A DNA stretch of 16,481 bases from Myxococcota bacterium (GTDB lineage Bacteria > Myxococcota > JACRCW01). The first letter of the stretch is position 1, and each line of letters opens with the position of its first letter. Below the pieces are notes generated by a model, which did no database searches, was not told where the DNA came from, and saw only the letters and a program-made list of their open reading frames with translations. The position numbers and the translations under genes were made by a program. This document shows, piece after piece, positions 70-15,500 of the stretch. Location: positions 1 to 16,481 of the forward strand of contig JBFMGU010000238.1 of assembly GCA_040752415.1 (NCBI GenBank), written 5' to 3'.

Positions 70-1671
70 TCAGTTGATGCCGCGGAAGGTCTTGCCGCGA
101 CCTTCACCGCGAACGGGATCCCCATCACGCACCACGGGAATGCCGCCGTTGACGACGTGACGCATCCCGGTGGGGAACTGGATCGGATCGGTGAAGGTGG
201 CGTTGTCGATGACGGTGCTGAAGTCGAACGCCACCAGGTTGGCGCGCTTGCCCTTCTCGACGACGCCGTGGTCCTTCAGTCGCATGGCGCGTGCGGCCTG
301 GGAGGTCATCTTACGCACGGCCTCTTCCAGCGTCGTCAGCTTCTTCTCCCGCGTCTGGCGGCCCAGGATGCGCGGATAGGTCCCGAACGCGCGCGGGTGC
401 GGCCGGCCACCCAGCAAGCCATCCGTGCACGCGTTGACCCACGGCAGCTTCCACAGCGCGTCGACGACGTCATCGCTCTGGCTGAACGACACCATGGCCA
501 CGCCCAGGCGCTCGCTGGCCAGCAGGTCCAGCGCGAAGTCCAGCGCCTCCACTCCCGCCGCGTTGGCAGCGTCCTCCAGCGTCTTGCCCACCACCTCGGG
601 ACGTCGGCCGCTGGGCACGTCGGCGAGGATGATTCCCTTGGCGCGCGACCACTTCCAGAAGTTGTCCCAGTGGCTCGGCTGCTGGCTCTGCATCTCAGAG
701 CGGATGCGCGCGCGCGTGGCCTTGTCGTTGAGGCGCTCCACCACCTTGTCGACGCCACCCTCGTGCATCCACGGCGGAAGGATGGCGCCCAACATGGTGG
801 AGCCGGCAATGTACGGGTACTGGTCCGCCGTCACCTCAATGCCACTGCGACGCGCCTCCTCCACCTTGGCAATCAGCTCCTCCACCCGACCCCAGTTCTC
901 CCGCCCGGCGATCTTGAAGTGGCTGATGTGGAGCCGCACGCCGCTGGCACGACAAATCTGGAGGCACTCCTCGACGCCATCCAGGATGTAGTCGCTCTCA
1001 CTGCGCATGTGGATCACGAACGCGCCGTCCCGCTTGGCCACCGGCTTGCACAGCTCAATGAGCTCCTCCGCGTTGCCGTATACGCAGGGCGGATAGATGA
1101 GGCCGGTGGAGATGCCGAGCGCGCCCTGCTCCAGCCCCTGCTCGACGAGGGCCACCATCTTCCGGACTTCCTCCGGCGTGGCGTGACGATTCTCCATGCC
1201 CATCACCACCGCGCGCACCGCGCCGTGCGGGATGAGGTACGTCATGTCCACGTGCGGCTTCACGCGGTCGATCTCGTCGAGATACGTGCGCACGTCGCGC
1301 CAGGCCCAGGACACCGGCGGGTCACCGTCGAGACCGGCGAGGCGACGCCGCGTATCCGCCACGTCCTCCTCCTTCACCGGCGTGACGCTGATGCCGTCCT
1401 GTCCCAGCACCTCCAGCCCCACGCCCTGGCGGACCTTGGGCGGAAGGTCCGGCTCGACGAGAATCTTGAGATCGCTGTGGCTGTGCGTATCCAGGAAGGC
1501 CGGCGCCACGACGAAACCCTTGCAGTCCAGCGTGTTGCGGCCCTTCAACGTGCCGGGCGGCGCCACCTCCGCAATGCGGTCACCGGAGATTCCCACGTCG
1601 GCGTGTCGACGCGGCGCACCGGTTCCATCCACCACCTCACCACCCGAGAGCACCCAATCCAGTTGAGACAT
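70..1671 (-). CDS. N-acyl-D-amino-acid deacylase (D-aminoacylase) family amidohydrolase
   Basis: About 533 aa. Shows the N-terminal 'GGEVVDGTGAPRRHADVGISGDRI' beta-domain, the metal motif DTHSHSD, IHMRSE, HISHFK, ADQYPY, CTDG and HPRAFGTYPR. ATG at 1671 follows an AAGGTG SD-like site; the GTG at 1674 is an alternative start. Confidence 0.9.
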   Translation of the reverse strand: MSQLDWVLSGGEVVDGTGAPRRHADVGISGDRIAEVAPPGTLKGRNTLDCKGFVVAPAFLDTHSHSDLKILVEPDLPPKVRQGVGLEVLGQDGISVTPVKEEDVADTRRRLAGLDGDPPVSWAWRDVRTYLDEIDRVKPHVDMTYLIPHGAVRAVVMGMENRHATPEEVRKMVALVEQGLEQGALGISTGLIYPPCVYGNAEELIELCKPVAKRDGAFVIHMRSESDYILDGVEECLQICRASGVRLHISHFKIAGRENWGRVEELIAKVEEARRSGIEVTADQYPYIAGSTMLGAILPPWMHEGGVDKVVERLNDKATRARIRSEMQSQQPSHWDNFWKWSRAKGIILADVPSGRRPEVVGKTLEDAANAAGVEALDFALDLLASERLGVAMVSFSQSDDVVDALWKLPWVNACTDGLLGGRPHPRAFGTYPRILGRQTREKKLTTLEEAVRKMTSQAARAMRLKDHGVVEKGKRANLVAFDFSTVIDNATFTDPIQFPTGMRHVVNGGIPVVRDGDPVRGEGRGKTFRGIN

Positions 1672-1684
1672 CACTTCACCTTCT

Positions 1685-3706
1685 TCATGCGGGAGTCGGC
1701 AGCAGGAACGGTGCGCTGACGTGGCTGACGTGGTCCTTCTCTCGCACCGCGTCGAGCATCACGCACAGCACCTGCGCGTAGTTCGTGTGCAGCCGGGCAT
1801 CGGGCGCCACGTCGTCAAGAGCGTTCTCCGGCGGGAGGACCGCGTCCTGGCCGTTGAGCCGGATGCGGAACGGTCCCTCGTGATACACGCGCGCACCGCC
1901 GCCACGCTCCTCCAGCGCGCACAACACACCGTCAATGCGCGCGTCCACGCGCCAGGTTCCGTCCGCCTTGCGCTCGACGTGGAACCCATCGCGGTACGGC
2001 GTGTCCTTCCAGCTGTGGTGCGAGCCGAAGAAGCGCGGCTTGACCACGTAGGGCCCGCCGTCCTCGGGACAGAACACATCGCAGTTGCCGCACTCGTTGC
2101 AGAAGTCGGCGAAGTTGGCGAGCTGGTGGTCCTTGCCCACGCGCACCGCTTCGTCCTTCTCGCGCACCAGCTTACCGGCCTCCACCTTGTAGACGGCCGC
2201 CGTCACCTCGCGCACCGCGGTCTCGAAGGAGAAGTTGGCGTCGTTGGGGCAGACGGGGATGCACTTGTCGCAGTTGATGCAGTCAAAGAACCGCAGCTGG
2301 GAACCCACCTTGCGCGGCGGCTTGCTGTTCTTGGCGGCGGCAAAGCGCGGGTTGGTGAGCGCGGCCTTGGCGACGTGCGGCGTGTTGAGCCGGGCCGCCT
2401 GGTCCACGTGCAGGTCTCCACCTTCCGGCGCGTTCGGGTCGATGGCACGCGCGCGCTTGAGCGCCTCTTCACGGTTGCCGAATGCGTTGAGGATCCACTC
2501 GCGCACGTTGTTGGCGCCCACGTCCGCCATGCGCTTCTCGACGATGGGGAAGTACTTCCCGAGGCGCGAGTAGCCACCAGGCCGCAGCAGGTCGGTGCAC
2601 ATGGTGATGGGCGTGAGTCCCAGCGCCACCATGTCCGCCGCGTTCTCGCGGTCCACGCCGGCGGAGAAGGAGATGGGCAGGCCCGGCGGAAGGTGCGGCC
2701 GCAGCTTGTCGAGCAACTGCAACGCCACCACGTGGAGCGGCTCCCCCGACGTGTACATCTCCTTTTCCGTCTTGGGGAAGAAGCTCTTGTGATTGTGGAC
2801 GATGAGCGTGTTGGTGAGCTTCACGCCGAAGGTGAGCCCGCGGCTCTTCGCGCGCTCCGTGAGTCGACCAATGATGTCCAGCGCCTGGTTCCACTGCAGG
2901 TCGTTGTCGAACGCGCTGTCGGGGGTGCGGAGCTCGTCGTAGCCCAGTTGACCGCGCACCACGTCGCGCACGCCGTCACGACCGAGCAGCGTGGGATTCA
3001 GCTTGACGATGAGGTTCAGCCCCAGGTCATCCATCAGGTAGTTGCAGATGCTCTCGATCTCGTTGGCGGGGCAGCCGTGGAACGTCGACAGCGTCAGCGA
3101 GTTGGCCAGCCTGGGTGACACCTGCAGACCCGACCAGCGTGCGAGTGGACCCGTGAGCGCATGCAATCTCTCGTCGATGAGCTGACGCGCGTTCATCATC
3201 TGGCGGATGAAGCCGGTGACCTTCTCGCTCTTGATGCCCTCCAGGTTGTAGCCGCAGGAGAGATCGAAGATGAGCGGGCTCTGCGCCATGGGCTCGCCCA
3301 GCTCACGCAGCACGTGGATGAGGATCCAGGCATTGATGTATTCGCTCAGCGACTGGCTGACGCGCAGCTCCTGGCTCCACTCGACGTTGAACCCGACGGT
3401 GGCGGCGTCAATGCACGGACGCGGAATCTTGAGCTCGTCGAGAATCTGGACGGTCTTGAGCTCCATGACGCGACCACCCGCCAGGTACGCCAGCACGATG
3501 TTCTGCGCGAGCTGGGAGTGCGGTCCGGCGGCGGGACCAAACGGCGTGGCGGCGGTCTGTCCGTGGAGCTTGATGGAGAGGTCACGACCCGGCAGCCCGG
3601 TGAAGAAGGAGCGACGCGGCAGGTCAAAGATGGCGTCCTTCTTCTCGCGCTCGACGAGCATGCGTGACAGCAACGTCGGGAGGGGGAGGGGGACAAGCTC
3701 GGCCAT
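1685..3706 (-). CDS. ygfK: YgfK-like oxidoreductase (DHODH/PreA-like barrel + 2x[4Fe-4S]), short form lacking the central FAD/NAD(P)H module
   Basis: 673 aa. The motifs TPFGPAAGPHSQLAQNIV, ELKTVQILD, FNVEWS, GYNLEGIK, TLSTFHGCP, VKLNPTLLG, GVKLTNT and TDLLRPGGY match YgfK as I recall it. The C-terminus has CINCDKCIPVCP and CNECGNCDVFCP ferredoxin motifs. GGAG SD upstream. Confidence 0.88.
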   Translation of the reverse strand: MAELVPLPLPTLLSRMLVEREKKDAIFDLPRRSFFTGLPGRDLSIKLHGQTAATPFGPAAGPHSQLAQNIVLAYLAGGRVMELKTVQILDELKIPRPCIDAATVGFNVEWSQELRVSQSLSEYINAWILIHVLRELGEPMAQSPLIFDLSCGYNLEGIKSEKVTGFIRQMMNARQLIDERLHALTGPLARWSGLQVSPRLANSLTLSTFHGCPANEIESICNYLMDDLGLNLIVKLNPTLLGRDGVRDVVRGQLGYDELRTPDSAFDNDLQWNQALDIIGRLTERAKSRGLTFGVKLTNTLIVHNHKSFFPKTEKEMYTSGEPLHVVALQLLDKLRPHLPPGLPISFSAGVDRENAADMVALGLTPITMCTDLLRPGGYSRLGKYFPIVEKRMADVGANNVREWILNAFGNREEALKRARAIDPNAPEGGDLHVDQAARLNTPHVAKAALTNPRFAAAKNSKPPRKVGSQLRFFDCINCDKCIPVCPNDANFSFETAVREVTAAVYKVEAGKLVREKDEAVRVGKDHQLANFADFCNECGNCDVFCPEDGGPYVVKPRFFGSHHSWKDTPYRDGFHVERKADGTWRVDARIDGVLCALEERGGGARVYHEGPFRIRLNGQDAVLPPENALDDVAPDARLHTNYAQVLCVMLDAVREKDHVSHVSAPFLLPTPA

Positions 3707-3730: not shown

Positions 3731-5014
3731 TCAGGACAACTTGTTCCACATCTTCTGCGCGGTCTCGCGACAGCGGTGCTTGAGCGCGGCCTCATCCACC
3801 AGCGTGAAGCGCCCACCGCGCATCACCACCTGCGCATCCACCACGACGTCGCGCACCGGCCACGGCGAGGGACCGAAGAACATATGACCGAACACGGTGT
3901 TCTCGGTGAGCGGCGTGGGCGGGTCGTACGCGGTGACCACGGCGTCCCCGACGTAGCCGGGCTGCAGCGCGCCGAACTTCCCGCCAAAGTGCCGCTCCGC
4001 GAGCTTGAAGTTGTTCTGAAGGAGCGCCAGCGCGTCGACGGAATCCGTGGGCCCGTACTGGCGGCGCCCGTTGTGGAACACCGCGCGCCCCTCGGTGATC
4101 ATGTCACCATCCATCCCGTCGGTGCCGAGCGTCACCATGCTCTTGAAGCGCTTGGGCTGCTGGTAGCCCACTGCGTTGTTGAGGTTGGAGCGCACGTTGT
4201 GGATGACGGGCGTGTCGGTGCGGGCCAGTTCCCGGATCTCCGCCTCGTCGACGTGGACCGCGTGCGCCACCAGCGAGAGCGGCCCCAGCGCGCCGGCCTT
4301 GGAGAGCCGGGTCACGGCAGGCATGTTGTACTTCGTGGCGCTGTGCACCTCGTCGGAGAGCGCTTCCGCCACGTGCACGTGGATGCCGGTGCTGGTGGCC
4401 TTCATGGCGTCGACGGCGGCGGCCAGCGTCTCCGGTCCCACGGTGAACGGCGCGTGCAGGCCCACCAGGCCGCGCAGCATGCGGTCACCCTTGATGCGCT
4501 CGATGAAGCGCTTGCACTCGGCAATGCCGCGCTGCCCGTCGGTGTCGCCGTGGCGGTCGGTGGCGCCGTAGCAGAGGACGCCCCTCAGGCCCACCTGGCG
4601 CAGCGCATCCGCGATGATGTCGAGGCTGCCGTCGATGAAACGCGGGGACTCGTGGTGGTCGAACAGCGTGGTGGTGCCGGCGCGCAGGGCCTCCATGGAC
4701 GCGGCAAACACGCTCATGCGGAGGCTCTCCTCGTCGAGCGCGCAGTCCATCTTCCACCACACCTGCTCCAGGATCTCCACGAAGGAGCGCGTGGGTCCCT
4801 TGGGCAGCGGCATGCCGCGCGCCAACCCGCTGTAGAGGTGCGTGTGCGCGCAGACCATGCCCGGCCAGATCACGCAGCCGGTGCAGTCCACGCGCTCGTC
4901 GTCGTCGTTGGGGGCGCGATCGACCACGTGACCGTCTTCCAGCACCACGTCGCGCATGGCCACGTGGACAGGATTGAGGTCCACCACCGTTCCGCCGCAA
5001 AGAGCCACGCCCAT
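3731..5014 (-). CDS. ssnA: SsnA-like metal-dependent amidohydrolase (chlorohydrolase/aminohydrolase family)
   Basis: 427 aa with PGMVCAHTHLYSGLARGM, GTTTLFDHH, GLHAPFT, HVHVAE, AHAVH and LGTDG motifs. It is adjacent to the ygfK-like gene, as ssnA is in known clusters. Confidence 0.85.
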   Translation of the reverse strand: MGVALCGGTVVDLNPVHVAMRDVVLEDGHVVDRAPNDDDERVDCTGCVIWPGMVCAHTHLYSGLARGMPLPKGPTRSFVEILEQVWWKMDCALDEESLRMSVFAASMEALRAGTTTLFDHHESPRFIDGSLDIIADALRQVGLRGVLCYGATDRHGDTDGQRGIAECKRFIERIKGDRMLRGLVGLHAPFTVGPETLAAAVDAMKATSTGIHVHVAEALSDEVHSATKYNMPAVTRLSKAGALGPLSLVAHAVHVDEAEIRELARTDTPVIHNVRSNLNNAVGYQQPKRFKSMVTLGTDGMDGDMITEGRAVFHNGRRQYGPTDSVDALALLQNNFKLAERHFGGKFGALQPGYVGDAVVTAYDPPTPLTENTVFGHMFFGPSPWPVRDVVVDAQVVMRGGRFTLVDEAALKHRCRETAQKMWNKLS

Positions 5015-5017
5015 TGC

Positions 5018-6265
5018 TCACCCCACCCTTTCCACGACGTCACGCACCGCATCCAGCCGGGGCGCCACCTTGTGCGCCGACGGAGCGGCCCGCAGCGCGC
5101 CACGTGAGTCCTTGAGCCCGTGCCCGGTGACGTAGTGCACCACGCTCTCGTCCTTACCGACGATCCCGCGCTGCTTCGCCACGTGGATACCGGCCAGCGC
5201 CGCCACCGCCGTGGGCTCGGCAAAGACGCCGGTGTTGCGCGCCAATCGTGGCATCCACTCGTCAATGAGCCCGTCGGGGACGGTGACCACGGCACCACCG
5301 CTCTCGCGAATGGCCCGCAGCGCCTTCACCGCGTTGCGCGGCGTCCCGACGCAGATGCTGTCCGCAATGGTCTTGGCGTCCTCGGGGACGAACGTCTCGG
5401 TGCCCTGGACCCACGCCTTGTGCAGCGGTGAGGAGCCCTCCGCTTGCACGGCGAGGATGCGGGGCGTGCGGGAGAGGACGCCCATGGCCTTCATCTCCTT
5501 GAGGCCCTTCCAGATGCCCGCGGTGGTGCACCCGTCGCCGAGCGGCACGGCCACCCAGTCCGCGGGCTCGCTGTTGCCCAGCTGCTCACCCAGCTCCAGG
5601 CCGCCCGTCTTCTTCCCCTCGACGAGGAACGGGTTCACCGCGCAGTTCCGGTTGAACCAGCCGAAGGCGCCCACGGCCTGCTGACACAGGTCATAGGCCT
5701 GGTCATAGGACCCTTCCACGAGCAGCACGTTGGCGCCGTAGATGAGCAGCTGCGCCAGCTTGGCCTCCGGCGCTGTGTGCGGGACGAAGATGAACGCCTT
5801 CAGCCCGAAGTGCGCCGACCACCCGGCAAGGCTGCTGGCCGCATTTCCCGTCGACGCGCACGTGATGACCTTGGCGCCCTGTTGCGCGGCGCGCCACACG
5901 CCCAGCGAGCTTGCGCGGTCCTTGAAGCTGGCGGTGGGCTGGCGTCCGTCGTCCTTCACGCGCAGCTGGCGGATGCCCAGGTCACGCGCGAGGGCGGGGA
6001 AGTCGTAGAGCGGGGTCCAGCCAATGTGCAGCTGCGGCGCCGTCCACGACGGGTCCACCGGCAAGAGCGGCCGGTAGCGCCACACGTTGAAGCTGGTGTC
6101 GGACGTCAGCGCGGCGGGAGTGTACGTGCGGAAGATGCGCTCGTAGTCGTAGATGACGTCGAGGATGCCCTTGTCGGGGCCGCACGCGGGACAGGTGTAG
6201 TCCACGCTGCCGTACGCATGGGTCTTCCTGCACTGGACGCATTCAAGGTGACGGATGTGCTGCAC
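5018..6265 (-). CDS. Threonine synthase-family (fold-type II) PLP-dependent enzyme with N-terminal zinc ribbon
   Basis: Shows a CVQC...CPAC ribbon, the PLP-lysine motif PTASFKDR, ASTGN, EGKKT, EPT and VTGHGLKD. The true start is probably the GTG at 6265, 5 nt after a perfect AGGAGG SD (6271-6276), rather than 6391. The stop is 3 nt before the ssnA ATG. Confidence 0.87.
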   Translation of the reverse strand: MQHIRHLECVQCRKTHAYGSVDYTCPACGPDKGILDVIYDYERIFRTYTPAALTSDTSFNVWRYRPLLPVDPSWTAPQLHIGWTPLYDFPALARDLGIRQLRVKDDGRQPTASFKDRASSLGVWRAAQQGAKVITCASTGNAASSLAGWSAHFGLKAFIFVPHTAPEAKLAQLLIYGANVLLVEGSYDQAYDLCQQAVGAFGWFNRNCAVNPFLVEGKKTGGLELGEQLGNSEPADWVAVPLGDGCTTAGIWKGLKEMKAMGVLSRTPRILAVQAEGSSPLHKAWVQGTETFVPEDAKTIADSICVGTPRNAVKALRAIRESGGAVVTVPDGLIDEWMPRLARNTGVFAEPTAVAALAGIHVAKQRGIVGKDESVVHYVTGHGLKDSRGALRAAPSAHKVAPRLDAVRDVVERVG

Positions 6266-6384
6266 GCCCACCTCCTGGAACCCACGGCTTCTAGCCCAAA
6301 AGCCCGCCATCGCGCGCCCGGTTTTCCGCATTTCCGCGACGTCGCCTTCTTCTCGAACCGGGGCCCTCAGCCTGAACCATCTCA

Positions 6385-6419
6385 TGGACACGAACTTCGT
6401 GGAACACTAGATTCGTGGC
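6385..6419 (+). promoter_or_regulatory. Sigma70-type promoter of the TA operon overlapped by two palindromic operator sites
   Basis: TGGACA (6385-6390), a 17-nt spacer, then TAGATT (6408-6413), with 6 nt between it and the ATG at 6420. A perfect palindrome CACGAA-C-TTCGTG (6389-6401) and a degenerate copy CACTAG-A-TTCGTG (6405-6417) overlap it. Confidence 0.7.
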
Positions 6420-6656
6420 ATGAAGAACCTGACCATCACGGTGCCCGAGGAAGTTGCCGCGTGGGCCCGGGTCTGGGCGGCCAAGCACAACACCAGCGTG
6501 TCCAAACTGGTGGGTGAGATGCTTCGGGAGCGCATGCAGCAGGAGGATGCGTACGAGGCGGCCATGAGGTCGTTCCTGGCGCGCAAGCCCACGGTGCTGA
6601 GTGGCGCACCGTATCCCAAGCGCGAGGAGCTGTATGACCGCCCGCGTCTTCGTTGA
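6420..6656 (+). CDS. Ribbon-helix-helix (CopG-like) antitoxin, VapB-type
   Basis: 78 aa. 'MKNLTITVPEEVAAWARVWAAKHNTSVSKLVGEML' fits the RHH pattern, and the C-terminal 'REELYDR' is typical of PIN-associated antitoxins. It overlaps the downstream PIN gene. Confidence 0.85.
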   Translation: MKNLTITVPEEVAAWARVWAAKHNTSVSKLVGEMLRERMQQEDAYEAAMRSFLARKPTVLSGAPYPKREELYDRPRLR

Positions 6657-7077
6657 CACCAACGTGCTGGCGTATGCGCAGGACCTCCGGGATGCCGTCA
6701 AGCAGCAGCGCGCCCACGAGTGGGTGACGTCGCTGTGGCGGCAACGCAACGGGCGTGTCAGCGCGCAGGTGCTCAACGAGTTGTACGTGACGCTCACGCA
6801 GCGGTTCCGACCAGGGATGAGGAAGGAAGAGGCCCGCGACTTCGTGCGCGAGCTGATGACATGGAGTCCCGTGCCGGTCGACGCCGTGCTCGTCGAGAGG
6901 GCGTGGTCGCTGCAGGACCGGTTCTCGCTGTCATTCTGGGACGCGCTGATTGTCGCGGCGGCGCATGCGTCCGGCTGCACGCACCTGCTCAGCGAGGACC
7001 TGCAGGATGGCCAGGACATGGAGGGCGTGGTCGTCGTCAACCCGTTTGCGCACGCACCGGCAGAGCTGGAACGCTGA
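6634..7077 (+). CDS. vapC: PIN-domain toxin (VapC family ribonuclease)
   Basis: 147 aa with VFVDTNVL, SAQVLNE, SFWDALIVAAA and LLSEDLQDG acidic PIN motifs. ATG 6634 follows a GAGGAG SD (6624-6629) and the gene overlaps the antitoxin by 23 nt. Confidence 0.9.
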   Translation: MTARVFVDTNVLAYAQDLRDAVKQQRAHEWVTSLWRQRNGRVSAQVLNELYVTLTQRFRPGMRKEEARDFVRELMTWSPVPVDAVLVERAWSLQDRFSLSFWDALIVAAAHASGCTHLLSEDLQDGQDMEGVVVVNPFAHAPAELER

Positions 7078-7107: not shown

Positions 7108-9711
7108 TCAGCCCTTCACAATGCCCGCGGCGGCCGGGGAGTCGCGCATGGGCAGCTTGTAGCGACGCTTCCCCTCGAACTTGGCCAACGCACCCGCCAC
7201 CGCGCCCGCCGTGGGCACCAGGCCAATCTCACCCACGCCCTTGGCGCCAAACGGACCCTCCGGCTCATGGTCCTCGACGATGATCACGTCCACCTTGGGC
7301 ATGTGCTTGGCGCGCAACACGCCGATGTCGCGGATGCGCGTGGTGACGGGGAAGCCGTCCTCGTCGGTGGCCAGCTCCTCGGAGAGCGCGTAGCCCAGGC
7401 CCATGTGCACGGACCCTTCAATCTGGCCCTGGCACAGCGCGGGATTGATGGCCCGACCCACGTCATGCGCGGCAATCACGCGCTCCACCTTGCCCTTGGC
7501 GTCGAGGATGACAACCTGCGTGGCAAATCCGAACGCGGTGTGCGTCTTGACCTTGTCAACCTTGGCGCCGAGTGGCGTGGTGTCATTGCAGAGGAAGTCA
7601 CCGGCGTAGACCTTGCCGGAGAGGTCCTTCAGGGTGGCGCCCCCGTCGAGGTCCGCCTTGAGCTGCTTGGCGGCCATGATCACCGCGTTGCCGCCGAACA
7701 GCGTGGCGCGGGAGCCCGTGGTCTGCCCGGAGCCCAGCGGATAGATGGTGTCCACCTTGGCACGGAACACGCTCGCGGGAAGGCCCGTCACCTCGCACGC
7801 GCACTGGATGAGGATGGTGAGCAGGCCCTGACCCATCTCGGTGTAGCCGTTGTACAGGCTGACGGTGGCATCCTTCTCGACGACGAGCCGGCACCGCCCC
7901 CACTCCGGCACACCGTTGCCGATGCCGCTGTTCTTGATGCCGCAGCCAATGCCCACCGCTTTGCCTTCGGCCTTGGCCTTCTCGTAGTGCGGCTTCACGG
8001 CTTCCAGCGTCTTCTTGAGGCCCACGCTCTTCTCGAGCACCTGGCCCGTGCAGAACACGCTTCCCACCTGCAGCGCGTTGCGCCAGCGGATTTCCCACGC
8101 ATCCAACCCCAGCTTCTCGGCCAGGAGGTCCATGCAGCCTTCCATGGCGAACGCCGCCTGGTTGGCCCCGAACCCGCGCATGGCGCCGCAGGGGAGGTTG
8201 TTGGTGTACGCGGCGATGGCCTCCACGTCGACGTTGGGCACGTCATACGCACCACACGCGTGACCCGCCGCGCGCTCCAGCACCTTGCCACCGACGGAAG
8301 CGTACGCGCCGCTGTCGCCGAGCATGCGGGCCCAGACGGCGGTGAGCTTGCCGTTCTCGTCGGCGCCCACGCGGTAGTGCAGGCGGATGGGGTGCCGCTT
8401 GGGGTGCATGCGGATGGAGTCATCACGCGTGAGGGTGACGCGCACGGGCTTGCCGGTCATCCTGGCCAGCAGGCACGCGTGGGCCTGGACGCTCATGTCC
8501 TCCTTGCCGCCGAACGCGCCGCCGTTGGGCACCAGCACCACGCGGATCTTGTCCTGCTCCACGCCCAGGAAGCTGGCGCACTGGCGCTGGTCGTCGAAGA
8601 TGCCCTGGCCTTGCGAGTAGAGCGTGATGTCGCCGGTGGCCTCGGGAACGGCGAGCGCGGACTCCGGCTCCAGGAACATGTGCTCAATGCGCTGCGTCTG
8701 CCACGTGCCTTCCACGACGTACTTGCTGTCCTTCAGCGCGTCCTCCGCGTTGCCGCGGGTGATGACGCTCTTGCTGAGCACGTTGTTGGGCTTGGGCGAG
8801 ATCTTGGGCGCGCCGGGCTTGATGGCCTCCTCGGGGTCGGTGACGGGAACCTTGACCTCGTACTCCACCTCGACGAGCGCCGCGGCATCCCGCGCCTGAC
8901 GGGGCGTGTCCGCCGCCACCACGGCCAGCACGTCCCCCACGTAGTGCGTCTCCTCGCCCTCGGCGATGAAGCCGGGCCAGTCGTCGTAGAGGATGCCGTA
9001 GCAGCGCTTACCGGGGACGTCCTTGTACGTGGCCACCGCGCGCACGCCAGGGGCCGCCAGGGCCTTGGTGACGTCGATCTTGATGACCTGCGCGCGCGCG
9101 TGGTCGGAGAAGCGGACGGCGCCGTGCAGCATGCCTTCCACCTTCATGTCGGCCACGTAGGGGTTCTCGCCCAGCGCGCGCGCCTTGCCGTCCACGCGGT
9201 CCAGGCTGGTTCCCACGCGACCACTCTCGTCGCGCGGAGGCAGCGCCTCACCACGCTTGACGGCGGCCGCCAGCTGGATGGCCTCGATGATCTTCACGTA
9301 CCCGGTGCAGCGACACAGGTGCACGTCGAGCTTCTTGGCAATCTCCGCGTCGGTGGGATTGGGGTTCTTCTCCAGGATGCTGTACGCGCGCATCACGATG
9401 CCGGGGATGCAGAACCCGCACTGCAGGCCCGCCTTGGCAACGAAGCAGTCCGCGAGCAGCCTCCGGTCCGCCTCGGGGAGTCCCTCCAGCGTGGTGACCT
9501 TGGCGCCCTGCTGCTTGGAGCACGGGACCGCGCACGTGGTCACTGCCCACCCGTCGACGAGCGCGGTGCAGCAACCGCATTGCCCCTGCGGCGCGCATCC
9601 GTCCTTGACGCTGGTGACTCCGCACTCTTCCCGGATGGCCTCCAGGAGCGTGCTGCGGTCATCCACCTGCAGGGACTTCTCCTGGCCATTCAGCGTGAAC
9701 TTGAACTCCAT
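7108..9711 (-). CDS. xdh: Xanthine dehydrogenase-family molybdenum hydroxylase, fused [2Fe-2S] + Mo-cofactor subunit (resembles the selenium-dependent XDH type)
   Basis: 867 aa. N-terminal GCAPQGQCGCC and QCGFC...LCRCTGY 2Fe-2S motifs. Mo-domain motifs QRIEHMFLEPE, GGAFGGKE, VLER, GAMRGFG, TEMGQG, TGSR and AKGVGE (catalytic Glu). GGAGG SD at 9719-9723. Confidence 0.9.
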   Translation of the reverse strand: MEFKFTLNGQEKSLQVDDRSTLLEAIREECGVTSVKDGCAPQGQCGCCTALVDGWAVTTCAVPCSKQQGAKVTTLEGLPEADRRLLADCFVAKAGLQCGFCIPGIVMRAYSILEKNPNPTDAEIAKKLDVHLCRCTGYVKIIEAIQLAAAVKRGEALPPRDESGRVGTSLDRVDGKARALGENPYVADMKVEGMLHGAVRFSDHARAQVIKIDVTKALAAPGVRAVATYKDVPGKRCYGILYDDWPGFIAEGEETHYVGDVLAVVAADTPRQARDAAALVEVEYEVKVPVTDPEEAIKPGAPKISPKPNNVLSKSVITRGNAEDALKDSKYVVEGTWQTQRIEHMFLEPESALAVPEATGDITLYSQGQGIFDDQRQCASFLGVEQDKIRVVLVPNGGAFGGKEDMSVQAHACLLARMTGKPVRVTLTRDDSIRMHPKRHPIRLHYRVGADENGKLTAVWARMLGDSGAYASVGGKVLERAAGHACGAYDVPNVDVEAIAAYTNNLPCGAMRGFGANQAAFAMEGCMDLLAEKLGLDAWEIRWRNALQVGSVFCTGQVLEKSVGLKKTLEAVKPHYEKAKAEGKAVGIGCGIKNSGIGNGVPEWGRCRLVVEKDATVSLYNGYTEMGQGLLTILIQCACEVTGLPASVFRAKVDTIYPLGSGQTTGSRATLFGGNAVIMAAKQLKADLDGGATLKDLSGKVYAGDFLCNDTTPLGAKVDKVKTHTAFGFATQVVILDAKGKVERVIAAHDVGRAINPALCQGQIEGSVHMGLGYALSEELATDEDGFPVTTRIRDIGVLRAKHMPKVDVIIVEDHEPEGPFGAKGVGEIGLVPTAGAVAGALAKFEGKRRYKLPMRDSPAAAGIVKG

Positions 9712-10255: not shown

Positions 10256-10945
10256 TCACAACGTGCCCGCTGCCTTGCGCAGCACCCCCGCGGGGTCGTC
10301 GCGAATGGGGTCGCCGTGGGCGCCCAGGAGCAGCTTGAGCTGAGGCGTCTCCGCCAGCTCGAGGAGGAACTGCTTCAACACGGCCTTCTTGGCCACCTGC
10401 CGGAACCGCACAATGCGCGGCAGGCCGGCACCACCGCCGGGCACGCTGAGCAGTTTCATGAGCAGGCCCTTGGCGTGGACGTTCCCGATGACGTCGGTGA
10501 AGACCAGTGCGCGGCCTCCCGCGGCGTCGAGGTCCAGCATGATCTCACCGTGCTTGAGGCCGGGCACCACGCGGTGGCGGATGCCCAGCGGGGTGAGCAG
10601 CTGATCCGGTCCCCCGTCGACGGAAACCTTGCCGGCGAGCCGCTGCGCCGCGTCTGGCAGGGCCACCACCTTGAGGTCGGGGTAGCGCGCCTTGAAGAAC
10701 GGGGCGTCCATGATGTGGAACGCGTGCGGCACCACCATCACTTCCGGCTTGCCCAGGGCTTCCAGCTTGCGCATGCCCTCGTCGTGCATGGCCACCACGC
10801 TGTAGAGCAGCAGTCCGCCGCTGGGCAGCTTCACGATGGTCATGCTGCGAGGCAGTGGGAAGGGAAGGGAGCCAGCCACCTGCCAGATTCCAGGCGCAAT
10901 CTCGACGGGGGGCTGGTGGGGATAGATGGTGTGGGCGCTCGTCAC
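10256..10945 (-). CDS. Hypothetical protein, metallo-beta-lactamase-like fold (DUF4336-like)
   Basis: 229 aa with 'EIAPGIWQV...RSMTIVKLPSGGLLLYS', 'LEALGKPEVMVVPHAFH', 'LVFTD' and 'LLGAHG' patterns typical of this group. GTG start. Confidence 0.7.
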   Translation of the reverse strand: MTSAHTIYPHQPPVEIAPGIWQVAGSLPFPLPRSMTIVKLPSGGLLLYSVVAMHDEGMRKLEALGKPEVMVVPHAFHIMDAPFFKARYPDLKVVALPDAAQRLAGKVSVDGGPDQLLTPLGIRHRVVPGLKHGEIMLDLDAAGGRALVFTDVIGNVHAKGLLMKLLSVPGGGAGLPRIVRFRQVAKKAVLKQFLLELAETPQLKLLLGAHGDPIRDDPAGVLRKAAGTL

Positions 10946-11206: not shown

Positions 11207-11387
11207 CTGCAGGAGGGCCCCCAGGGAGCCGGACCCGGTCGCCAAGCGGGTCGGCGGTGAAGCCACGAGCGCGTGCACGACGGTGTCGGCCCAAGCGCGA
11301 GCAACGTCCTGGGCAATGGACCCGGCAGCCTGGCGACGTTAAGGGGTGCGGTTGGGCGTTGTTCGTCTCCATCGTGCATCGAGCGCA

Positions 11388-14300
11388 ATGACATCACCTT
11401 TGCCTCCCGCCACGTTTCAACGCACCTGGGCCACGCCCCTGGGCAGGTTCCTCCGTGCGCACCATCGGACCGCCTCAGGGATGCGTGGGGCGGCCTACGC
11501 CCGCCTTGGCCACGTGCAGTCGTTCCGCGCCCAGGGCCAGAACGTGGTCGTCGCCACCGTCGCGGGCAGCCAGCCCCATCCCTACCAGGTCAAGCTGGAG
11601 GTGTTCCGGGAGGGTCTGCTCACCAACTGCAGCTGTCCCGTCGGCTTCGACTGCAAACACGCGGTCGCCGCCGGGCTGGTTCTCGCCACGCAGCACGGGC
11701 TGTCGACGGCGACAGACGTCCGCGTTGCACCCTCACCGCGGCCCGTGAGGCGCTCTCCTGTCGTCGTCCGCGCGCCTGCGGCCGCTCGGCGTGAAACACC
11801 TCGCGCACTTCCACCGGCTCCAGCGGCCACGGACCCGGCCCCTGCACGTGACGCCCAGGACGTCATCCTCGGCTGGCTGGCGCGCCCCGCTTCCGGCGTG
11901 ACGACGCATGACCTGGACCTCCGCGTCGAGTGGCACAGCGTGGTCTCGTCTCACGGTGGAATGGCGCAACTGCGCGCAGAGGTGGTCCTGACCCCACCGG
12001 GCGGACGCAGCGGAGCCCAGCACCCGGCGGTGGTGGGGCACATCCGGAACGAGATCACACTGGGCCGGCTCCAGCCTGCACGTGCGCGCGAGGGCCACTT
12101 CCTCCAGTGGCTGGGCACCACCGGCGCCTGGCGGGTTTCCCACGAGCACGGTGACCCGCGCCATTACGTCGCCGTCGCAGATGCCGGAGAGTGGCTGGCG
12201 CGCTGGTCCGGGAGCGGACTGCTGTGGTGGCGCGGCGGCGACGAGGTGGTGGCCGCCCCGGAGGTTGCGCGCTTCGTCGTCCGGACGGAGGACCGGGAGC
12301 CGCAGTGGATGCTGGAGCTGCCGCGGGGAGGGCAGGATGCGCTGCTGTTGCCCCTGTCCGACGTCGATCTGCTGGTCAGTGACGACTCCCCGCCCGACTT
12401 CCCACGCATCCATCTCCGTCGTGGCGCCGCCCTCCACCGGGTCGATGCCGGCGGACTGACGCTGCCGCTCCTCGAGGCGATTCGCCGCGCGCCTCTGCTC
12501 CCGCTGGACCGCGTGCGGCAGTTGCCCCAGGCGCAGCACGTCCTGGCGCCGTTCCTGGACCGGGCCGGTGCGCTGCCGGTGCCGCGCGAGGTGGACGTCC
12601 TCCCCAGCGCCGCCTTCAAGCTCAGCCCGATGGGGGAGCTGGAGATCACCGCCTGGGCCGAAGCCGCCGACGGAACGCGGTTCAACTATGCCTTCAACGC
12701 GCACTGGACCGTGTCCCTGCCCGCGTCCCTCGACACGACGTTGGAGCCCATGCCCGCCGAAACGCCCGCCGCTCCGCCCGCGCCCGACGCCGCCACGGCG
12801 CGCGCGCTGTTTGTCACGCCACGACGGGAGGACGTGGCAGCGCTGGAGAGCTGGCTGCAGGCACTGACGGTGGATGTGCTGCGCGCCGCGCGGGTTGCGG
12901 ACGCGGTCTTGCGCGGGTGGACGGAGAAGAGCGCGCGGCCGGCGCTCCTCCGGGTCTGGGAGACCCGACCGGGACACGTGCGCTACCTGGGCAACCGCCC
13001 ATTCCGCGACGCGGTCACACCGCGCCCCCCGCCGCGCTTCCAGGTTCGCGTTGAGCGCAGCGGCATCGAGTGGCTGAGTGTCTCGGTGGGGTTGCAGGAG
13101 GAGCTGGAGAGATTGGACCTCCAGGAGCTGCTGCGCGTGCTGCGGACCGCGCAGGACCAGGAGCTGGTCATCCTGCGCAGCGGGGAGATGTACCGGCGCG
13201 CCGAGCTGGAGCCGTTCAAGGCGCAACTGGAGGCCCTGGCCGACCTTGGCCTGGAGCCCCGTCGTGACGTCGAGGTCCGGCTCCATGCCGCGCAGCTCGC
13301 GGGAGTGCGCGCCGAGACGCTGTCCACGCTGAGCGAATTCTCGTCGGAGCTGGGCGCGCTGGCGGCGGCCATCCGCAAGCACGCGGCGAGCTTCAAGGGC
13401 ATCCCCAAGGCGGGCGTTCCCGTCGCCACCGCGCGCCACCTGCGTCCCTACCAGCGGCAAGGCGTGGACTTCGTGGCGTGGTCGACCAGCATCTTCGGCG
13501 GCGCCCTGCTGGCTGACGAGATGGGGCTGGGCAAGACGTTGCAGGTGCTGGCCGCCCTGACGGCGCTGCGCGCAGGACGCAAGCGCAACCTCCCCACGCT
13601 GGTGATCTGCCCGGCGAGCGTGGTGCGCAACTGGGAGCGCGAGGCGCAGCGTTTTGCGCCCGGTCTGCGCGTCGGCCTCCTGGAGCGCGGCCCCGGGCGA
13701 CAACACGTGCTCTCCCGTCTGGCGCGCCTGGACGTGGTGGTGACCAACTTCGCCCTGGCCCGCATGGAGATTGAAGCGCTCATCGCGCAGCGCTGGCTCA
13801 TGGTCGTTGTCGACGAGGCGCAGGCCATCAAGAACCCTCAGTCCGGCATTGCGCACGCCGTCAAGCGCCTGCAGGCCCGCCACCGCGTGGCGCTCACCGG
13901 GACGCCCATTGAGAACCGTTTGCAGGACCTGGAGTCCATCATGGACTTCGCGGTGCCGGGCCACCTGGGCTCGCTGGACGCGCTCCAGCCCGGGGCCGAC
14001 GACGAGACCCTGGTGCGGGGCCGTCGGATCCTGCGCGCTCGCCTCCGGCCGGTGCTGTTGCGTCGTCTGAAGCAGGAGGTGGCGCCGGAGCTGCCTCCGC
14101 GCATCGAGGAGCGACTGGACTGCGAGATGACACCTGCCCAGCGCAGGCTCTACGCCGCCGAGCTCAAGCGTGCGCGGATGGTGTTGGAGGACGTGCGCGA
14201 CGACCGGGTCGTTGGGCAGGACCGTGTGCTGATGCTGACGGTGCTCACGCGCCTGCGGCAGCTCTGCTGCGACCCTGCGGTGCTGGGCATCACCGGCGTC

Positions 14301-14846
14301 GGCTCGGGGAAGGTGGAGGAGTTCCTGGAGCTGATGACGGGCTTGTTGGAGGGGGGCCACAAGGTGCTGGTGTTCTCTCAGTTCGTGCGCGTGCTCGAGC
14401 GCCTGCGTCCGCTCCTGAGGGACCGCCGTGTGACGCAGTGGATGCTCACGGGCAAGACCCAAGGGCGGGATGCGCTGGTCCGCGAGTTCGAGGCGCACGA
14501 GGGGCCCGGGGCGTTCCTCATCTCACTGAAGGCGGGCGGCAGCGGGCTCAACCTGGTCTCCGCGTCCCAGGTGATCATCTTCGACCCGTGGTGGAACCCG
14601 GCGGTGGAGGCTCAAGCCATCGATCGCACGCACCGCATTGGGCAGCGCAAGACGGTCACGGCGTTCCGGCTGGTCACGCGCGACACGGTGGAGGAGCGCA
14701 TCATGGAGCTGCAGGAGCGCAAGCGCGCACTGGTCCGCGGCGTGCTCGAAGAAGAAGCCTTCAACCGGACGCTGACCCGTGAGGACTTCGAGTTCCTCCT
14801 GGCACCCACCGCGCGCCGGGAAGCAGGCGATCACCCCCCGACGTGA
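11388..14846 (+). CDS. SWIM zinc-finger + SNF2-family (SF2) DEAD/DEAH-like helicase/ATPase
   Basis: SWIM motif CSCPVGFDCKH. Helicase motifs LRPYQ, LADEMGLGKT, VVDEAQAIKN, LTGTPIEN, RLRQLC, LVFSQF, SLKAGGSGLNL, DPWWNP and QAIDRTHRIGQ. The start is uncertain; ATG 11388 was chosen. Confidence 0.92.
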   Translation: MTSPLPPATFQRTWATPLGRFLRAHHRTASGMRGAAYARLGHVQSFRAQGQNVVVATVAGSQPHPYQVKLEVFREGLLTNCSCPVGFDCKHAVAAGLVLATQHGLSTATDVRVAPSPRPVRRSPVVVRAPAAARRETPRALPPAPAATDPAPARDAQDVILGWLARPASGVTTHDLDLRVEWHSVVSSHGGMAQLRAEVVLTPPGGRSGAQHPAVVGHIRNEITLGRLQPARAREGHFLQWLGTTGAWRVSHEHGDPRHYVAVADAGEWLARWSGSGLLWWRGGDEVVAAPEVARFVVRTEDREPQWMLELPRGGQDALLLPLSDVDLLVSDDSPPDFPRIHLRRGAALHRVDAGGLTLPLLEAIRRAPLLPLDRVRQLPQAQHVLAPFLDRAGALPVPREVDVLPSAAFKLSPMGELEITAWAEAADGTRFNYAFNAHWTVSLPASLDTTLEPMPAETPAAPPAPDAATARALFVTPRREDVAALESWLQALTVDVLRAARVADAVLRGWTEKSARPALLRVWETRPGHVRYLGNRPFRDAVTPRPPPRFQVRVERSGIEWLSVSVGLQEELERLDLQELLRVLRTAQDQELVILRSGEMYRRAELEPFKAQLEALADLGLEPRRDVEVRLHAAQLAGVRAETLSTLSEFSSELGALAAAIRKHAASFKGIPKAGVPVATARHLRPYQRQGVDFVAWSTSIFGGALLADEMGLGKTLQVLAALTALRAGRKRNLPTLVICPASVVRNWEREAQRFAPGLRVGLLERGPGRQHVLSRLARLDVVVTNFALARMEIEALIAQRWLMVVVDEAQAIKNPQSGIAHAVKRLQARHRVALTGTPIENRLQDLESIMDFAVPGHLGSLDALQPGADDETLVRGRRILRARLRPVLLRRLKQEVAPELPPRIEERLDCEMTPAQRRLYAAELKRARMVLEDVRDDRVVGQDRVLMLTVLTRLRQLCCDPAVLGITGVGSGKVEEFLELMTGLLEGGHKVLVFSQFVRVLERLRPLLRDRRVTQWMLTGKTQGRDALVREFEAHEGPGAFLISLKAGGSGLNLVSASQVIIFDPWWNPAVEAQAIDRTHRIGQRKTVTAFRLVTRDTVEERIMELQERKRALVRGVLEEEAFNRTLTREDFEFLLAPTARREAGDHPPT

Positions 14847-14915: not shown

Positions 14916-15500
14916 ATGCGAGCGGTGGTTCTGGATGTGCCGGAAGACTGGCTCAAGGAGCGAGCGCGCCTTGGGCTGGACCGTCGGGATGAGATGTGGA
15001 ACGGGGTTCTTCACATGGTTCCACCGCCGTCGTTTGAGCATCAGGACCTGGCTGGACAGCTCTTCGGGTTCCTGCTCGTTCGGCTGGCGTCTCGTGGCAT
15101 CCGCGTCCTGTACGAGACCGGTGTGTTTCGCCCGGGCGGGGGTGGGAAGGACTACCGTATCCCTGACATGGTGTTTTTCCGCGCGTCGGACAAGCACCTC
15201 GTCACGGACCGCGGGATCGAGGGTGCGCCACTGGCCGTGCTCGAAGTGCTTTCACCCGACGATGAGAGCTACGAGAAGCTGGACTTCTGGGCAGCGCTGG
15301 GCGTTGCGGAGGTCATCATGATCTCGCCGAAGGACCGCGCCGTGGAACTCTACCGGCTCGCGGGGACCGGCTACGTGGCGACGTCAGCTGACGCGTCGTG
15401 GACGCTCCACGCCGCATCCATCGACGTGCGCTGGTCGCGCCTGCCGCGGATTCCAGCGTGCCTGCGTGTTGAGTGCGGTGGCGAGGCCATGGAAATCTAG
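14916..15500 (+). CDS. Uma2 family (DUF820) PD-(D/E)xK endonuclease-like protein
   Basis: 194 aa with RDEMWNGVLHMVPPPSFEHQ, RIPDM, GAPLAVLEVLSP and EKLDFWAALGVAEV motifs. Confidence 0.88.
   Translation: MRAVVLDVPEDWLKERARLGLDRRDEMWNGVLHMVPPPSFEHQDLAGQLFGFLLVRLASRGIRVLYETGVFRPGGGGKDYRIPDMVFFRASDKHLVTDRGIEGAPLAVLEVLSPDDESYEKLDFWAALGVAEVIMISPKDRAVELYRLAGTGYVATSADASWTLHAASIDVRWSRLPRIPACLRVECGGEAMEI

Follow-up and report, generated by a model that had tools for sequence, protein, structure and literature searches.

Escherichia coli YgfK has recently been identified as a 2,8-dioxopurine (isoxanthine) reductase that depends on reduced nicotinamide adenine dinucleotide phosphate (NADPH) and serves the reductive urate pathway of gut anaerobes. 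In that pathway, as outlined in 2025, XdhD converts urate to 2,8-dioxopurine, YgfK reduces this product, and SsnA opens the ring (10.1101/2025.05.19.654654, 10.1101/2025.04.24.650524, PMC12507026); YgfK and SsnA are reported to convert 2,8-dioxopurine with NAD(P)H in vitro (10.1101/2025.05.19.654654, 10.1101/2025.04.24.650524). Structural modelling described in one of these reports arranges one site for flavin mononucleotide (FMN) and another for flavin adenine dinucleotide (FAD) in E. coli YgfK as in pig PydA (PMC12507026). Clostridial PydAc, a ferredoxin-dependent dihydropyrimidine dehydrogenase, is reported to use reduced ferredoxin or methyl viologen (PMC7332683), and Clostridioides difficile UacX is described as an isoxanthine reductase lacking FAD (PMC12507026). 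Here we describe a shortened ygfK gene in a 16,481-nucleotide stretch of a Myxococcota genome (contig JBFMGU010000238.1, assembly GCA_040752415.1), which we call the window. Its product, P0001, lacks the central module through which YgfK would read NADPH.

We propose that P0001 is probably an FMN/[4Fe-4S] 2,8-dioxopurine reductase that is fed by an external one-electron donor and not by NAD(P)H, and we infer its substrate, its FMN binding, and its donor from the architecture, conservation, family size, and pathway context that we observed. The short YgfK would keep the TIM barrel, the presumed site of FMN and substrate binding, together with the paired [4Fe-4S] clusters and the C-terminal domain. 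It would reduce 2,8-dioxopurine at the flavin, after which the neighbouring SsnA would open the ring, and an external redox protein would deliver electrons singly by way of the two [4Fe-4S] clusters, the candidates being a soluble ferredoxin, a flavodoxin, and the Fe-S chain of a co-encoded FAD-less xanthine dehydrogenase (XDH). The protein consists, in order, of a TIM-barrel domain, a linker, a 2x[4Fe-4S] domain, and a C-terminal domain, which lie in the window as follows.

1685..3706, minus strand: short-form ygfK gene (P0001), with its ATG at 3706 and 673 amino acids, from the open reading frame (ORF) and its translation
2552..3694, minus strand: N-terminal YgfK-type TIM-barrel domain, about residues 5-385, from matches to TIGR03315 (5-398) and E. 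coli YgfK (7-398)
2297..2551, minus strand: variable linker, about residues 386-470, from an 11-sequence alignment
2246..2281, minus strand: first ferredoxin motif, C476-x2-C479-x2-C482-x3-C486-P487, from a motif script and the alignment
2066..2101, minus strand: second ferredoxin motif, C536-x2-C539-x2-C542-x3-C546-P547, which aligns with CNECGNCAQFCP of E. coli YgfK
1688..2044, minus strand: C-terminal domain of unknown function, about residues 555-673, from the alignment; present in long forms too

A first-pass annotation of this DNA had described a 673-residue frame at 1685..3706 without a GxGxxG motif, and this was borne out, with the gene lying on the minus strand: a script scan of all 673 residues found no GxGxx[GA] motif. 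A Pfam scan of P0001 matched Fer4-type dicluster families alone (residues 475-549) and gave no match to Pyr_redox_2, Fer4_20, or any NAD/FAD family, as the annotation had predicted. The junction that it had placed at about 2249-2290 was also about right. There, 'LRFFDC' (residues 471-476, nucleotides 2296-2279) abuts INCDKCIPVCPNDAN (residues 477-491, nucleotides 2278-2234), and the CxxCxxCxxxCP motif said to span the junction is indeed complete and is one of two such motifs (C476-P487 and C536-P547).

The protein of E. coli K-12 (RefSeq record; L001:21061-24159) has 1032 amino acids, contains '...LPLTDCYVAPC...' and '...CNYVCSKCVDVCPNRAN', and carries the Pfam domains Fer4_20 (453-532), Pyr_redox_2 (552-839), and a Fer4 dicluster (about 900-950), so that the first-pass annotation was right about the length of about 1030 residues and about the Fe-S and oxidoreductase block after LPLTDC. 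Pairwise alignment by BLASTP joins both ends of P0001 to this protein (residues 6-382 with 7-398, 42% identity, E 2e-96; residues 479-578 with 905-979, 31% identity, E 8e-10) and leaves out the central GltD-like module: a net of about 410 central residues is gone, all of Fer4_20 and Pyr_redox_2 included. When 11 sequences (5 short, 4 long, and 2 intermediate forms) were aligned with MAFFT, the short forms were gapped along the entire stretch in which the long forms carry Fer4_20 and Pyr_redox_2. The linker of P0001 ends in a conserved NPR[FY]...K...L.FDC segment that is common to long forms, and the residues ahead of D475-C476 align with the segment preceding Fer4_20 in those proteins. D475-C476 itself aligns with the invariant 'DC' that opens their Fer4_20 cysteine motif, and from C479 onward P0001 aligns with their C-terminal 'C..C...CPNRAN'. 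The first ferredoxin motif of P0001 is the site at which the Fer4_20 and Pyr_redox_2 cassette is joined in long forms, and it has the canonical spacing Cx2Cx2Cx3CP, whereas the E. coli motif reads Cx3Cx2Cx3CP. Within the barrel, GPAAGP 57-62, ELKT 82-85, N107/E109/W110/S111, and S207/H210/G211/C212/P213 are invariant across short and long forms, as are K235/N237, K296/N299/T300, S320/G321, G350, and G377/G378. Because the alignment, the Pfam scans, and the E. coli record all agree with it, the description of P0001 as a YgfK homologue missing this module is correct, and the absence of the module is, on these alignments, a result of homology and not a chance pattern. The missing NAD(P)H domain argues against direct use of NAD(P)H by P0001.

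P0001 thus shares with E. coli YgfK a homologous barrel, the C-terminal 2x[4Fe-4S] domain, and the C-terminal domain, as well as a gene context in which ygfK stands beside ssnA with a molybdenum hydroxylase in the cluster, but it is without the whole FAD/NADPH cassette, belongs to a separate clade, and falls below the TIGR03315 cutoff. Its score against that model (Se_ygfK) was 442.3 bits, short of the cutoff of 835.3, with the match in two stretches, the better of which joins residues 5-395 to positions 5-398 of the 1012-position model. In terms of TIGR03315/IPR017701, P0001 has the barrel, the 2x[4Fe-4S] domain with its C-terminal extension, and the gene context, and it lacks the central module and a score above the cutoff.

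The same architecture recurs widely. A word-index search, in which 8000 candidates were scored, returned 7893 matches with E <= 0.001; the best 120 of these were all 567-718 amino acids long with Fer4 as their sole Pfam domains, and the best non-self match among those listed was 65% identical to P0001. Short forms carry database names such as 'glutamate synthase', 'putative selenate reductase', and '4Fe-4S dicluster domain-containing protein'. Searched exhaustively, the 50%-identity representatives gave 1883 proteins at E <= 0.001, 580 of them at E <= 1e-30, and we classified P0001 and the best 150 representatives by phmmer, using three parts of E. coli YgfK as queries. Short forms, with the N and C parts only, made up 76 of the 151 (median 668 amino acids) and long forms with all three parts 52 (median 1091); 9 were intermediate, with a partial central module (869-1055 amino acids, most 906-940), and 14 were fragments without the C part. 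Pfam scans of example proteins agreed with the short, long, and intermediate classes. Among genomes, taken as one per species, the short form was present in at least 599 matches, all confirmed by tblastn, from nine or more phyla. Our taxon and neighbourhood counts rest on the best 80 loci of these, which came from Myxococcota (24), Pseudomonadota (20), Acidobacteriota (10), Planctomycetota (7), Elusimicrobiota (6), Gemmatimonadota (5), and others. The hosts are mostly environmental bacteria, many of them from soil and water, and the isolates include Rhodoplanes sp. SY1, Rhodovulum sp. PH10, and Propionivibrio dicarboxylicus DSM 5885.

An alignment of 24 short forms shows no variation at any of the eight cluster cysteines. 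Given the large family, these invariant ligands, and the collinearity with PreA described below, the short form is, as far as comparison can tell, an intact functional architecture and neither decay nor misassembly, which agrees with the first-pass annotation. Other assemblies carry the short form as well, all of the best 120 matches being short, and domain scans revealed no FAD/NAD-binding domain. What has to be revised is the implied history: the module is absent as the annotation said, but this is an old and widespread trait of a subfamily and not a private deletion in one genome.

The ESM Atlas model of the exact P0001 sequence (predicted template-modelling score, pTM, 0.92; predicted local distance difference test, pLDDT, 0.89) superposes on YgfK clusters of about 980-1001 amino acids with a template-modelling (TM) score of 0.77 by query, over about 553 residues across 1-666. 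By this superposition, the short form equals the long form without its cassette, and its other domains are arranged alike. An Atlas structure search also placed the fold of the C-terminal domain behind Fer4 diclusters in oxidoreductase clusters that look unrelated (TM by query 0.64-0.72), among them GltD-like proteins (467-790 amino acids) and small Fer4 proteins of 205-290 amino acids. A sequence search of the PDB with the family profile left the barrel unmatched and gave weak Fe-S matches to 9lay_B (E 0.007) and to pyruvate:ferredoxin oxidoreductase 1b0p (E 0.025).

With a barrel, two [4Fe-4S] clusters, and no FAD module, P0001 has the layout of PreA or clostridial PydAc. Profile-profile alignment (hhalign) joined residues 40-549 of the short family to 3-391 of an E. 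coli-type PreA profile over 370 columns (E 5e-05, probability 68%); with E. coli PreA as a lone sequence the match was weak (probability 11.6%), and it became stronger with a PreA alignment. In the hhalign alignment, the barrel motifs of the short YgfK fell on or near those of PreA: GPAAGP with SSSP, ELKT with FKT, FNVEWSQE with FKNMEQIAE, LSTFHGCP with NFSCP, KLNPT with KMTPN, KLTNT with INT, SG with SG, and SAG with GGI. We take these to be the FMN- and substrate-binding motifs of the dihydroorotate dehydrogenase/dihydropyrimidine dehydrogenase barrel. Like PreA and PydAc, P0001 has a barrel followed by two [4Fe-4S] motifs and no FAD/NAD(P)H domain, but its barrel is not recognisable as PF01180 (DHO_dh), its score against the NCBIfam PreA model NF006183 (29.4 bits, residues 320-499, E 3.4e-07) is below the cutoff of 335, it has an extra linker of about 85 residues and an extra C-terminal domain of about 120, and its gene context is that of purines where theirs is that of pyrimidines. 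The earlier wording of a 'PreA-like architecture' is supported by these sequence comparisons as a description of the working layout, namely a collinear barrel and two [4Fe-4S] motifs; it does not hold as membership of PF01180 or PreA by any curated threshold.

There is a further likeness to UacX, for which the reaction that we propose for P0001 has itself been proposed, and which, as the window gene does, goes together with an XDH lacking its FAD subunit and a UacY-type hydrolase (PMC12507026). UacX, as classified in that report, is a PF01180 protein of the PydA family, whereas P0001 belongs to the YgfK lineage, and P0001 would therefore represent an independent route to a FAD-less enzyme. At one related locus, L075, a PreA-like ORF, which E. 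coli PreA matches by tblastn at 25% identity in 340 columns (E 9e-17), lies at 19441-20856 on the plus strand, and its Pfam matches at E <= 1e-4 are to Fer4 alone; a second reductase of the UacX/PreA type may coexist there with the short YgfK.

The genes around the short ygfK point to purine breakdown, with four of them transcribed from the same strand.

7108..9711, minus strand: FAD-less molybdenum hydroxylase (the window XDH) with fused 2x[2Fe-2S] and molybdenum cofactor (Moco) domains; TIGR03311, selenium-dependent XDH, 962.5 bits, above the cutoff of 830
5018..6391, minus strand: threonine-synthase-like enzyme dependent on pyridoxal phosphate (PLP), here PALP-a; PALP E 3.6e-73, NF006050 293.6 bits with a cutoff of 303
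3731..5014, minus strand: SsnA-like amidohydrolase; NF005540 404.6 bits with a cutoff of 444, with 35% identity to E. coli SsnA across 434 columns
70..1674, minus strand: Amidohydro_3 hydrolase, D-aminoacylase-like and UacY-like; PF07969 E 3.9e-24, 10 bp downstream of the short ygfK

The order on this strand is XDH, PALP, SsnA, short YgfK, and UacY-like, with gaps of 4-24 bp from PALP onward and 24 bp between the end of the SsnA-like gene and the start of the short ygfK. The Pfam domains of the window XDH are Fer2, Fer2_2, hammerhead, and MoCoBD_1/2; FAD_binding_5 is absent both from it and from the window by Pfam. This XDH is a candidate enzyme for uric acid or 2,8-dioxopurine and a candidate redox partner of the short YgfK. 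The SsnA-like amidohydrolase would be the next enzyme of the pathway after the short YgfK. SsnA has been used as a marker of the reductive urate pathway, and PF07969 is the family used for UacY (PMC12507026). PALP-a, the true start of which is probably downstream of the listed GTG, carries an N-terminal CxxC...CxxC segment and is 22% identical to YgeX over 183 columns; judged by sequence, it is not a diaminopropionate ammonia-lyase of the YgeX type. On its gene content, the operon is predicted to be one for reductive urate degradation.

We compared the neighbourhoods of the 80 loci and the window (81 in all) by clustering ORFs of at least 90 amino acids with all-against-all BLASTP and removing shadow ORFs, and the 26 recurrent clusters were named by the Pfam matches of one representative each. 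Because just 39 of the 81 have about 10 kb on both sides, the counts are lower bounds. XDH was found in 41 neighbourhoods (23 of the 39 full-flank loci), SsnA in 35, PLP enzyme a in 29, and PLP enzyme b in 27, followed by two families of M20 peptidases (16 and 12), CN-hydrolase (14), an ornithine transcarbamylase (OTCase)-like family (12), a FAD_binding_5 subunit (10), a HyuA-like amidohydrolase (9), UacY-like proteins (8), XdhC (7), and a carbamate-kinase-like family (7). SsnA co-occurs with YgeY-, YgeW-, YqeA-, HyuA-, and UacY-like genes, and at least one pathway gene was present in 65 of the 81 neighbourhoods and in 33 of the 39 with full flanks.

Since P0001 is without the module that reads NADPH, its electrons must come another way. 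We looked for a PreT/GltD-like gene by tblastn with the cassettes of E. coli YgfK and of P0154, a long form, and with E. coli PreT, and found none in the window and one within 10 kb in just 1 of the 81 neighbourhoods (L068). Partial matches at two other loci (L014 and L016; 25.5% over 184 columns, about 10 kb upstream) were weak, and we treated them as unrelated Rossmann proteins. Ferredoxin-type cysteine motifs in ORFs of fewer than 100 amino acids outside ygfK occurred at three loci, at two of which (L015 and L068) the products were confirmed as 2x[4Fe-4S] ferredoxins; the third (L009) had no Pfam match. At the L068 locus, which belongs to P. dicarboxylicus DSM 5885 (13610-21867), the short ygfK is followed by a HyuA-like gene and then by a gene for a 77-residue 2x[4Fe-4S] ferredoxin, and the other strand encodes a 954-residue Fer4_20, Pyr_redox_2, and DHODB_Fe-S_bind protein and a 1662-residue ORF of the pyruvate/2-oxoacid:ferredoxin oxidoreductase family. 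This arrangement fits a supply of electrons by ferredoxin, although it is a single case. The published precedents among FAD-less enzymes support, by analogy, a one-electron donor for the short YgfK: UacX of C. difficile was assayed with reduced methyl viologen (10.1101/2025.05.19.654654), the UacX and XdhD of that species are both described as lacking FAD parts, with ferredoxin proposed as the donor (PMC12507026), and XdhAC of Clostridium sporogenes is reported not to use NAD(P)H (10.1101/2025.04.24.650524). The first-pass annotation had suggested ferredoxin, flavodoxin, or a separate partner subunit. Its reading of the protein as a functional PreA-like architecture stood up, and its choice of donors would fit what is reported for PydAc (PMC7332683) and UacX (PMC12507026). 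It did not take up the co-encoded FAD-less XDH as a possible partner, to which two fusion proteins, described below, point.

Several observations weigh against our proposal. Our reading of FMN binding and substrate in the short YgfK draws on its 42% identity with E. coli YgfK and on context. The P0001 barrel is covered by no Pfam model, and DHO_dh matched 3 of 24 members of the short family, with a best E of 0.099; the PreA profile match, at a probability of 68%, is moderate. None of the pathway genes lies within 10 kb in 6 of the 39 full-flank loci. Because the searches for PreT-like genes, ferredoxins, and small ORFs found nothing that recurs, we see no conserved linked donor gene: no ferredoxin or flavodoxin gene is conserved near the short ygfK, small 2x[4Fe-4S] ferredoxins being present in just 2 of the 81 neighbourhoods, and no family of ORFs of 40-110 amino acids occurs there in more than 4 loci. 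The donor may be encoded elsewhere in the genome, beyond the 16.5-kb window. Finally, Myxococcota, Gemmatimonadota, and Comamonadaceae, to which many of the short-form hosts belong by name, are largely aerobic. The reductive urate pathway, in contrast, has been described in anaerobes.

The donor could also be closer at hand. As a refinement of our proposal, which we consider possible and well short of probable, the short YgfK and the co-encoded FAD-less XDH might form one Fe-S-wired complex, in which electrons pass directly between the [2Fe-2S] pair of XDH and the [4Fe-4S] pair of YgfK. A single electron entry port would then serve both steps, from urate to 2,8-dioxopurine and on to the dihydro form; alternatively, oxidation of a purine at the Mo site would supply the electrons for the reduction carried out at the flavin. 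XDH is the most frequent family in the neighbourhoods, as the counts above show, and it is also the commonest immediate neighbour, with 11 cases at up to 300 bp, four of which are downstream on the same strand at gaps of 5, 5, 45, and 75 bp; moreover, a FAD_binding_5 gene was not found in 32 of the 41 XDH-bearing neighbourhoods, nor in the window. A search among longer proteins (42 matches at E <= 0.001 from 7999 scored candidates, mostly ordinary long forms) yielded two natural fusions: P0271 (1573 amino acids), a complete short YgfK (45% identity, 99% coverage) followed by Fer2_2, hammerhead, and MoCoBD, and P0273 (1623 amino acids, from a cluster of 5 member sequences), in which the domains follow each other likewise, across a low-complexity linker of about 45 residues and with no methionine at the joint. 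Their XDH halves are 62% and 54% identical, respectively, to the window XDH over 864-865 columns, its full length. The XDH part of P0271, however, starts with its own methionine after a 16-residue linker, so that the loss of a stop codon, or an error in sequencing, would give the same picture, and a fusion of consecutive pathway enzymes need not imply electron transfer between them. About 3.4 kb of the window, containing three genes and a toxin-antitoxin pair, separates the XDH gene from ygfK, and both enzymes consume electrons in the published pathway, so a third donor would still be needed for urate. We regard the fusions as suggestive of Fe-S wiring. The broader idea, that the short YgfK and the FAD-less Mo/Se hydroxylase make up one wired machine, joined in some bacteria as a single polypeptide, with no pyridine-nucleotide site that is widespread in soil and aquatic phyla, strikes us as somewhat less probable again; if true, it would be a pyridine-nucleotide-independent version of the 'anaerobic gut' urate pathway in Myxococcota, Acidobacteriota, Planctomycetota, Gemmatimonadota, and Proteobacteria.

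Other readings depart further from a reductase fed by single electrons. The collinearity of P0001 with PreA, which in E. coli works with the adjacent PreT according to annotation, would also suit an NAD(P)H-dependent enzyme whose PreT/GltD-like FAD/NAD(P)H subunit is encoded elsewhere, and at L068 the Fer4_20 and Pyr_redox_2 protein lies about 2 kb from the short ygfK. For a dedicated subunit of this kind one would expect linkage like that of preT and preA, yet it was seen within 10 kb in 1 of 81 neighbourhoods, and the L068 protein, encoded on the opposite strand beside a 2-oxoacid:ferredoxin oxidoreductase and provided with a DHODB Fe-S domain, resembles a general ferredoxin:NAD(P)H module; we judge this reading unlikely. 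We give a similarly low weight to the idea that the short clade acts on another N-heterocycle, or runs oxidatively, instead of reducing 2,8-dioxopurine. The barrel is just 42% identical to the characterised E. coli enzyme, a branch with 100% Shimodaira-Hasegawa (SH)-like support separates the short clade from the long forms in both of the trees described below, the window XDH is just 25% identical to E. coli XdhD, a threonine-synthase-like PLP enzyme stands in place of YgeX, and the hosts are mostly environmental. Against this, short and long forms share invariant barrel motifs, and SsnA, the pathway marker, is encoded next to the short ygfK in the window and occurs in 35 of 81 neighbourhoods, in the company of YgeY-, YgeW-, YqeA-, HyuA-, and UacY-like genes. 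The source names 'putative selenate reductase' and 'glutamate synthase' are the grounds for a last alternative, that the gene is a decayed or misassembled ygfK or the selenate reductase that many databases name, which we find hardly credible: the intact frame, the conserved ligands, and the same architecture in hundreds of genomes contradict decay and misassembly, and selenate is reported neither to be required by nor to stimulate E. coli YgfK (10.1101/2025.04.24.650524).

Longer proteins of the family include further joined architectures. P0155 (1046 amino acids) is a short YgfK joined to a dihydrodipicolinate synthase (DHDPS)-family domain, and P0310 (1578 amino acids) is a long YgfK with PF00860, presumably the xanthine/uracil permease family, in its precomputed Pfam list. 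P0272, a third fusion from the search that gave P0271 and P0273, joins a short YgfK to M20 and OTCase, and we regard it as an artefact on account of its frameshift-like junction.

We built a FastTree phylogeny from the barrel domain alone with 121 rows (62 short forms, 53 long forms including that of E. coli, and 6 intermediates), leaving out 31 of the 151 proteins because they were fragments or incomplete at the N terminus. One branch, with an SH-like support of 100%, parted 58 short forms and one long form (P0154) from the other 62 rows, and P0001 sits within this main short clade. A quick IQ-TREE run on 58 rows, namely the 4 outlying short forms, 6 intermediates, P0001, E. coli YgfK, P0154, P0263, and a random 22 short and 22 long forms, gave the same split with 100% SH-like support. 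An approximately unbiased (AU) test rejected a grouping of all 27 short rows together (log-likelihood difference 328, p 7.7e-07), although the group was chosen after seeing the tree, which weakens the test. The four outlying short forms nest among long forms, and three of them share the junction type of P0001:

P0268: LFDC-IS-C-GF-C-VEV-CPNRAN
P0220: MFDC-PGK-C-GN-C-VGV-CPNRAM
P0221: LFDC-RDK-C-GI-C-AGV-CPNRAI

On this evidence, the same Cys-to-Cys junction arose independently outside the main short clade. Because the nested short forms show junctions of the same kind, the Fer4_20 and Pyr_redox_2 block appears to behave as a cassette between two cysteines that was removed several times at one place, with insertion being less likely. 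If the trees are right, the direction of change in the nested short forms must be loss; for the main short clade, the tree, unrooted for want of a usable outgroup, is compatible with loss and with gain. The intermediate forms (P0208, P0219, P0230, P0233, P0238, P0251, P0253, P0258, and P0270) keep Fer4_20, and some retain one Rossmann (FAD-type) segment with much of Pyr_redox_2 gone. They group with three long forms and one short form at 98% support in FastTree, which suggests a stepwise reduction of the cassette. Such proteins (about 906-940 amino acids, for example P0208 and P0233) belong to the same family as P0001 and have a reduced central module too, but they keep part of the cassette, whereas P0001 is without all of it.

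Published surveys would probably have passed over these proteins. One recognises three types of reductase, YgfK by IPR017701, UacX by PF01180, and an F420-type enzyme (PMC12507026), and a second used an 80% coverage filter (10.1101/2025.04.24.650524); at 673 amino acids and below the TIGR03315 cutoff, the short form would probably be missed by both. We found no description of a FAD-less YgfK in the literature on ygfK/ssnA and on 2,8-dioxopurine or isoxanthine, figures and supplements aside, and the main text of two pathway papers does not mention the environmental phyla of the short form under Myxococc- or Acidobacteri- terms. The short form appears to be a large undescribed subfamily that outnumbers the long form among the family representatives closest to P0001 (of 151 proteins, 76 are short and 52 long). 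If it is active, the reductive purine pathway extends far beyond gut anaerobes, the electron supply of that pathway is not NAD(P)H, and the FAD/NADPH cassette is a removable module that was lost or gained several times at one Cys-to-Cys junction. The finding is a variation on known enzyme logic with a broad environmental distribution, and it marks a gap in a pathway described only in 2025. It also bears on read-based metagenome surveys in which YgfK serves as a 'selenium cycling' marker (PMC12638822); several other environmental papers mention YgfK too. In the light of the biochemistry published in 2025 and of the purine context, counts of this kind probably reflect purine catabolism, and the short YgfK proteins are more likely to be purine-catabolic than selenium-cycling.

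An Rfam scan of the window at E <= 1 found no riboswitch and no other RNA family. Between the XDH and PLP genes, a VapBC-like pair occupies 6420-7077 on the plus strand, in which a putative antitoxin of 78 amino acids (6420-6656) overlaps a PIN-domain ORF (6601-7077; Pfam PIN E 5.7e-13), with a sigma-70-like site at 6385-6413; the 80 related loci have no homologue of the pair at this position. A 249-residue ORF on the minus strand of the same region (6291-7040) was considered as a diverged YgfM-like FAD subunit and rejected: it has no Pfam or NCBIfam match and no homologue in the 80 loci, its codon-position GC content is 0.60/0.59/0.76 where real genes have about 0.67/0.45/0.90, and it is probably non-coding. 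Upstream of the operon, the minus strand has a 229-residue ORF with coding-like GC content and a weak DUF4336 match (10256-10945). The plus strand encodes a 1166-residue protein with SWIM, SNF2, and Helicase_C domains (11346-14846), for which the best NCBIfam model, the SCO1167/SCO6262-family helicase, scored 371 bits, below its cutoff, and a putative endonuclease of the Uma2 family (14916-15500).

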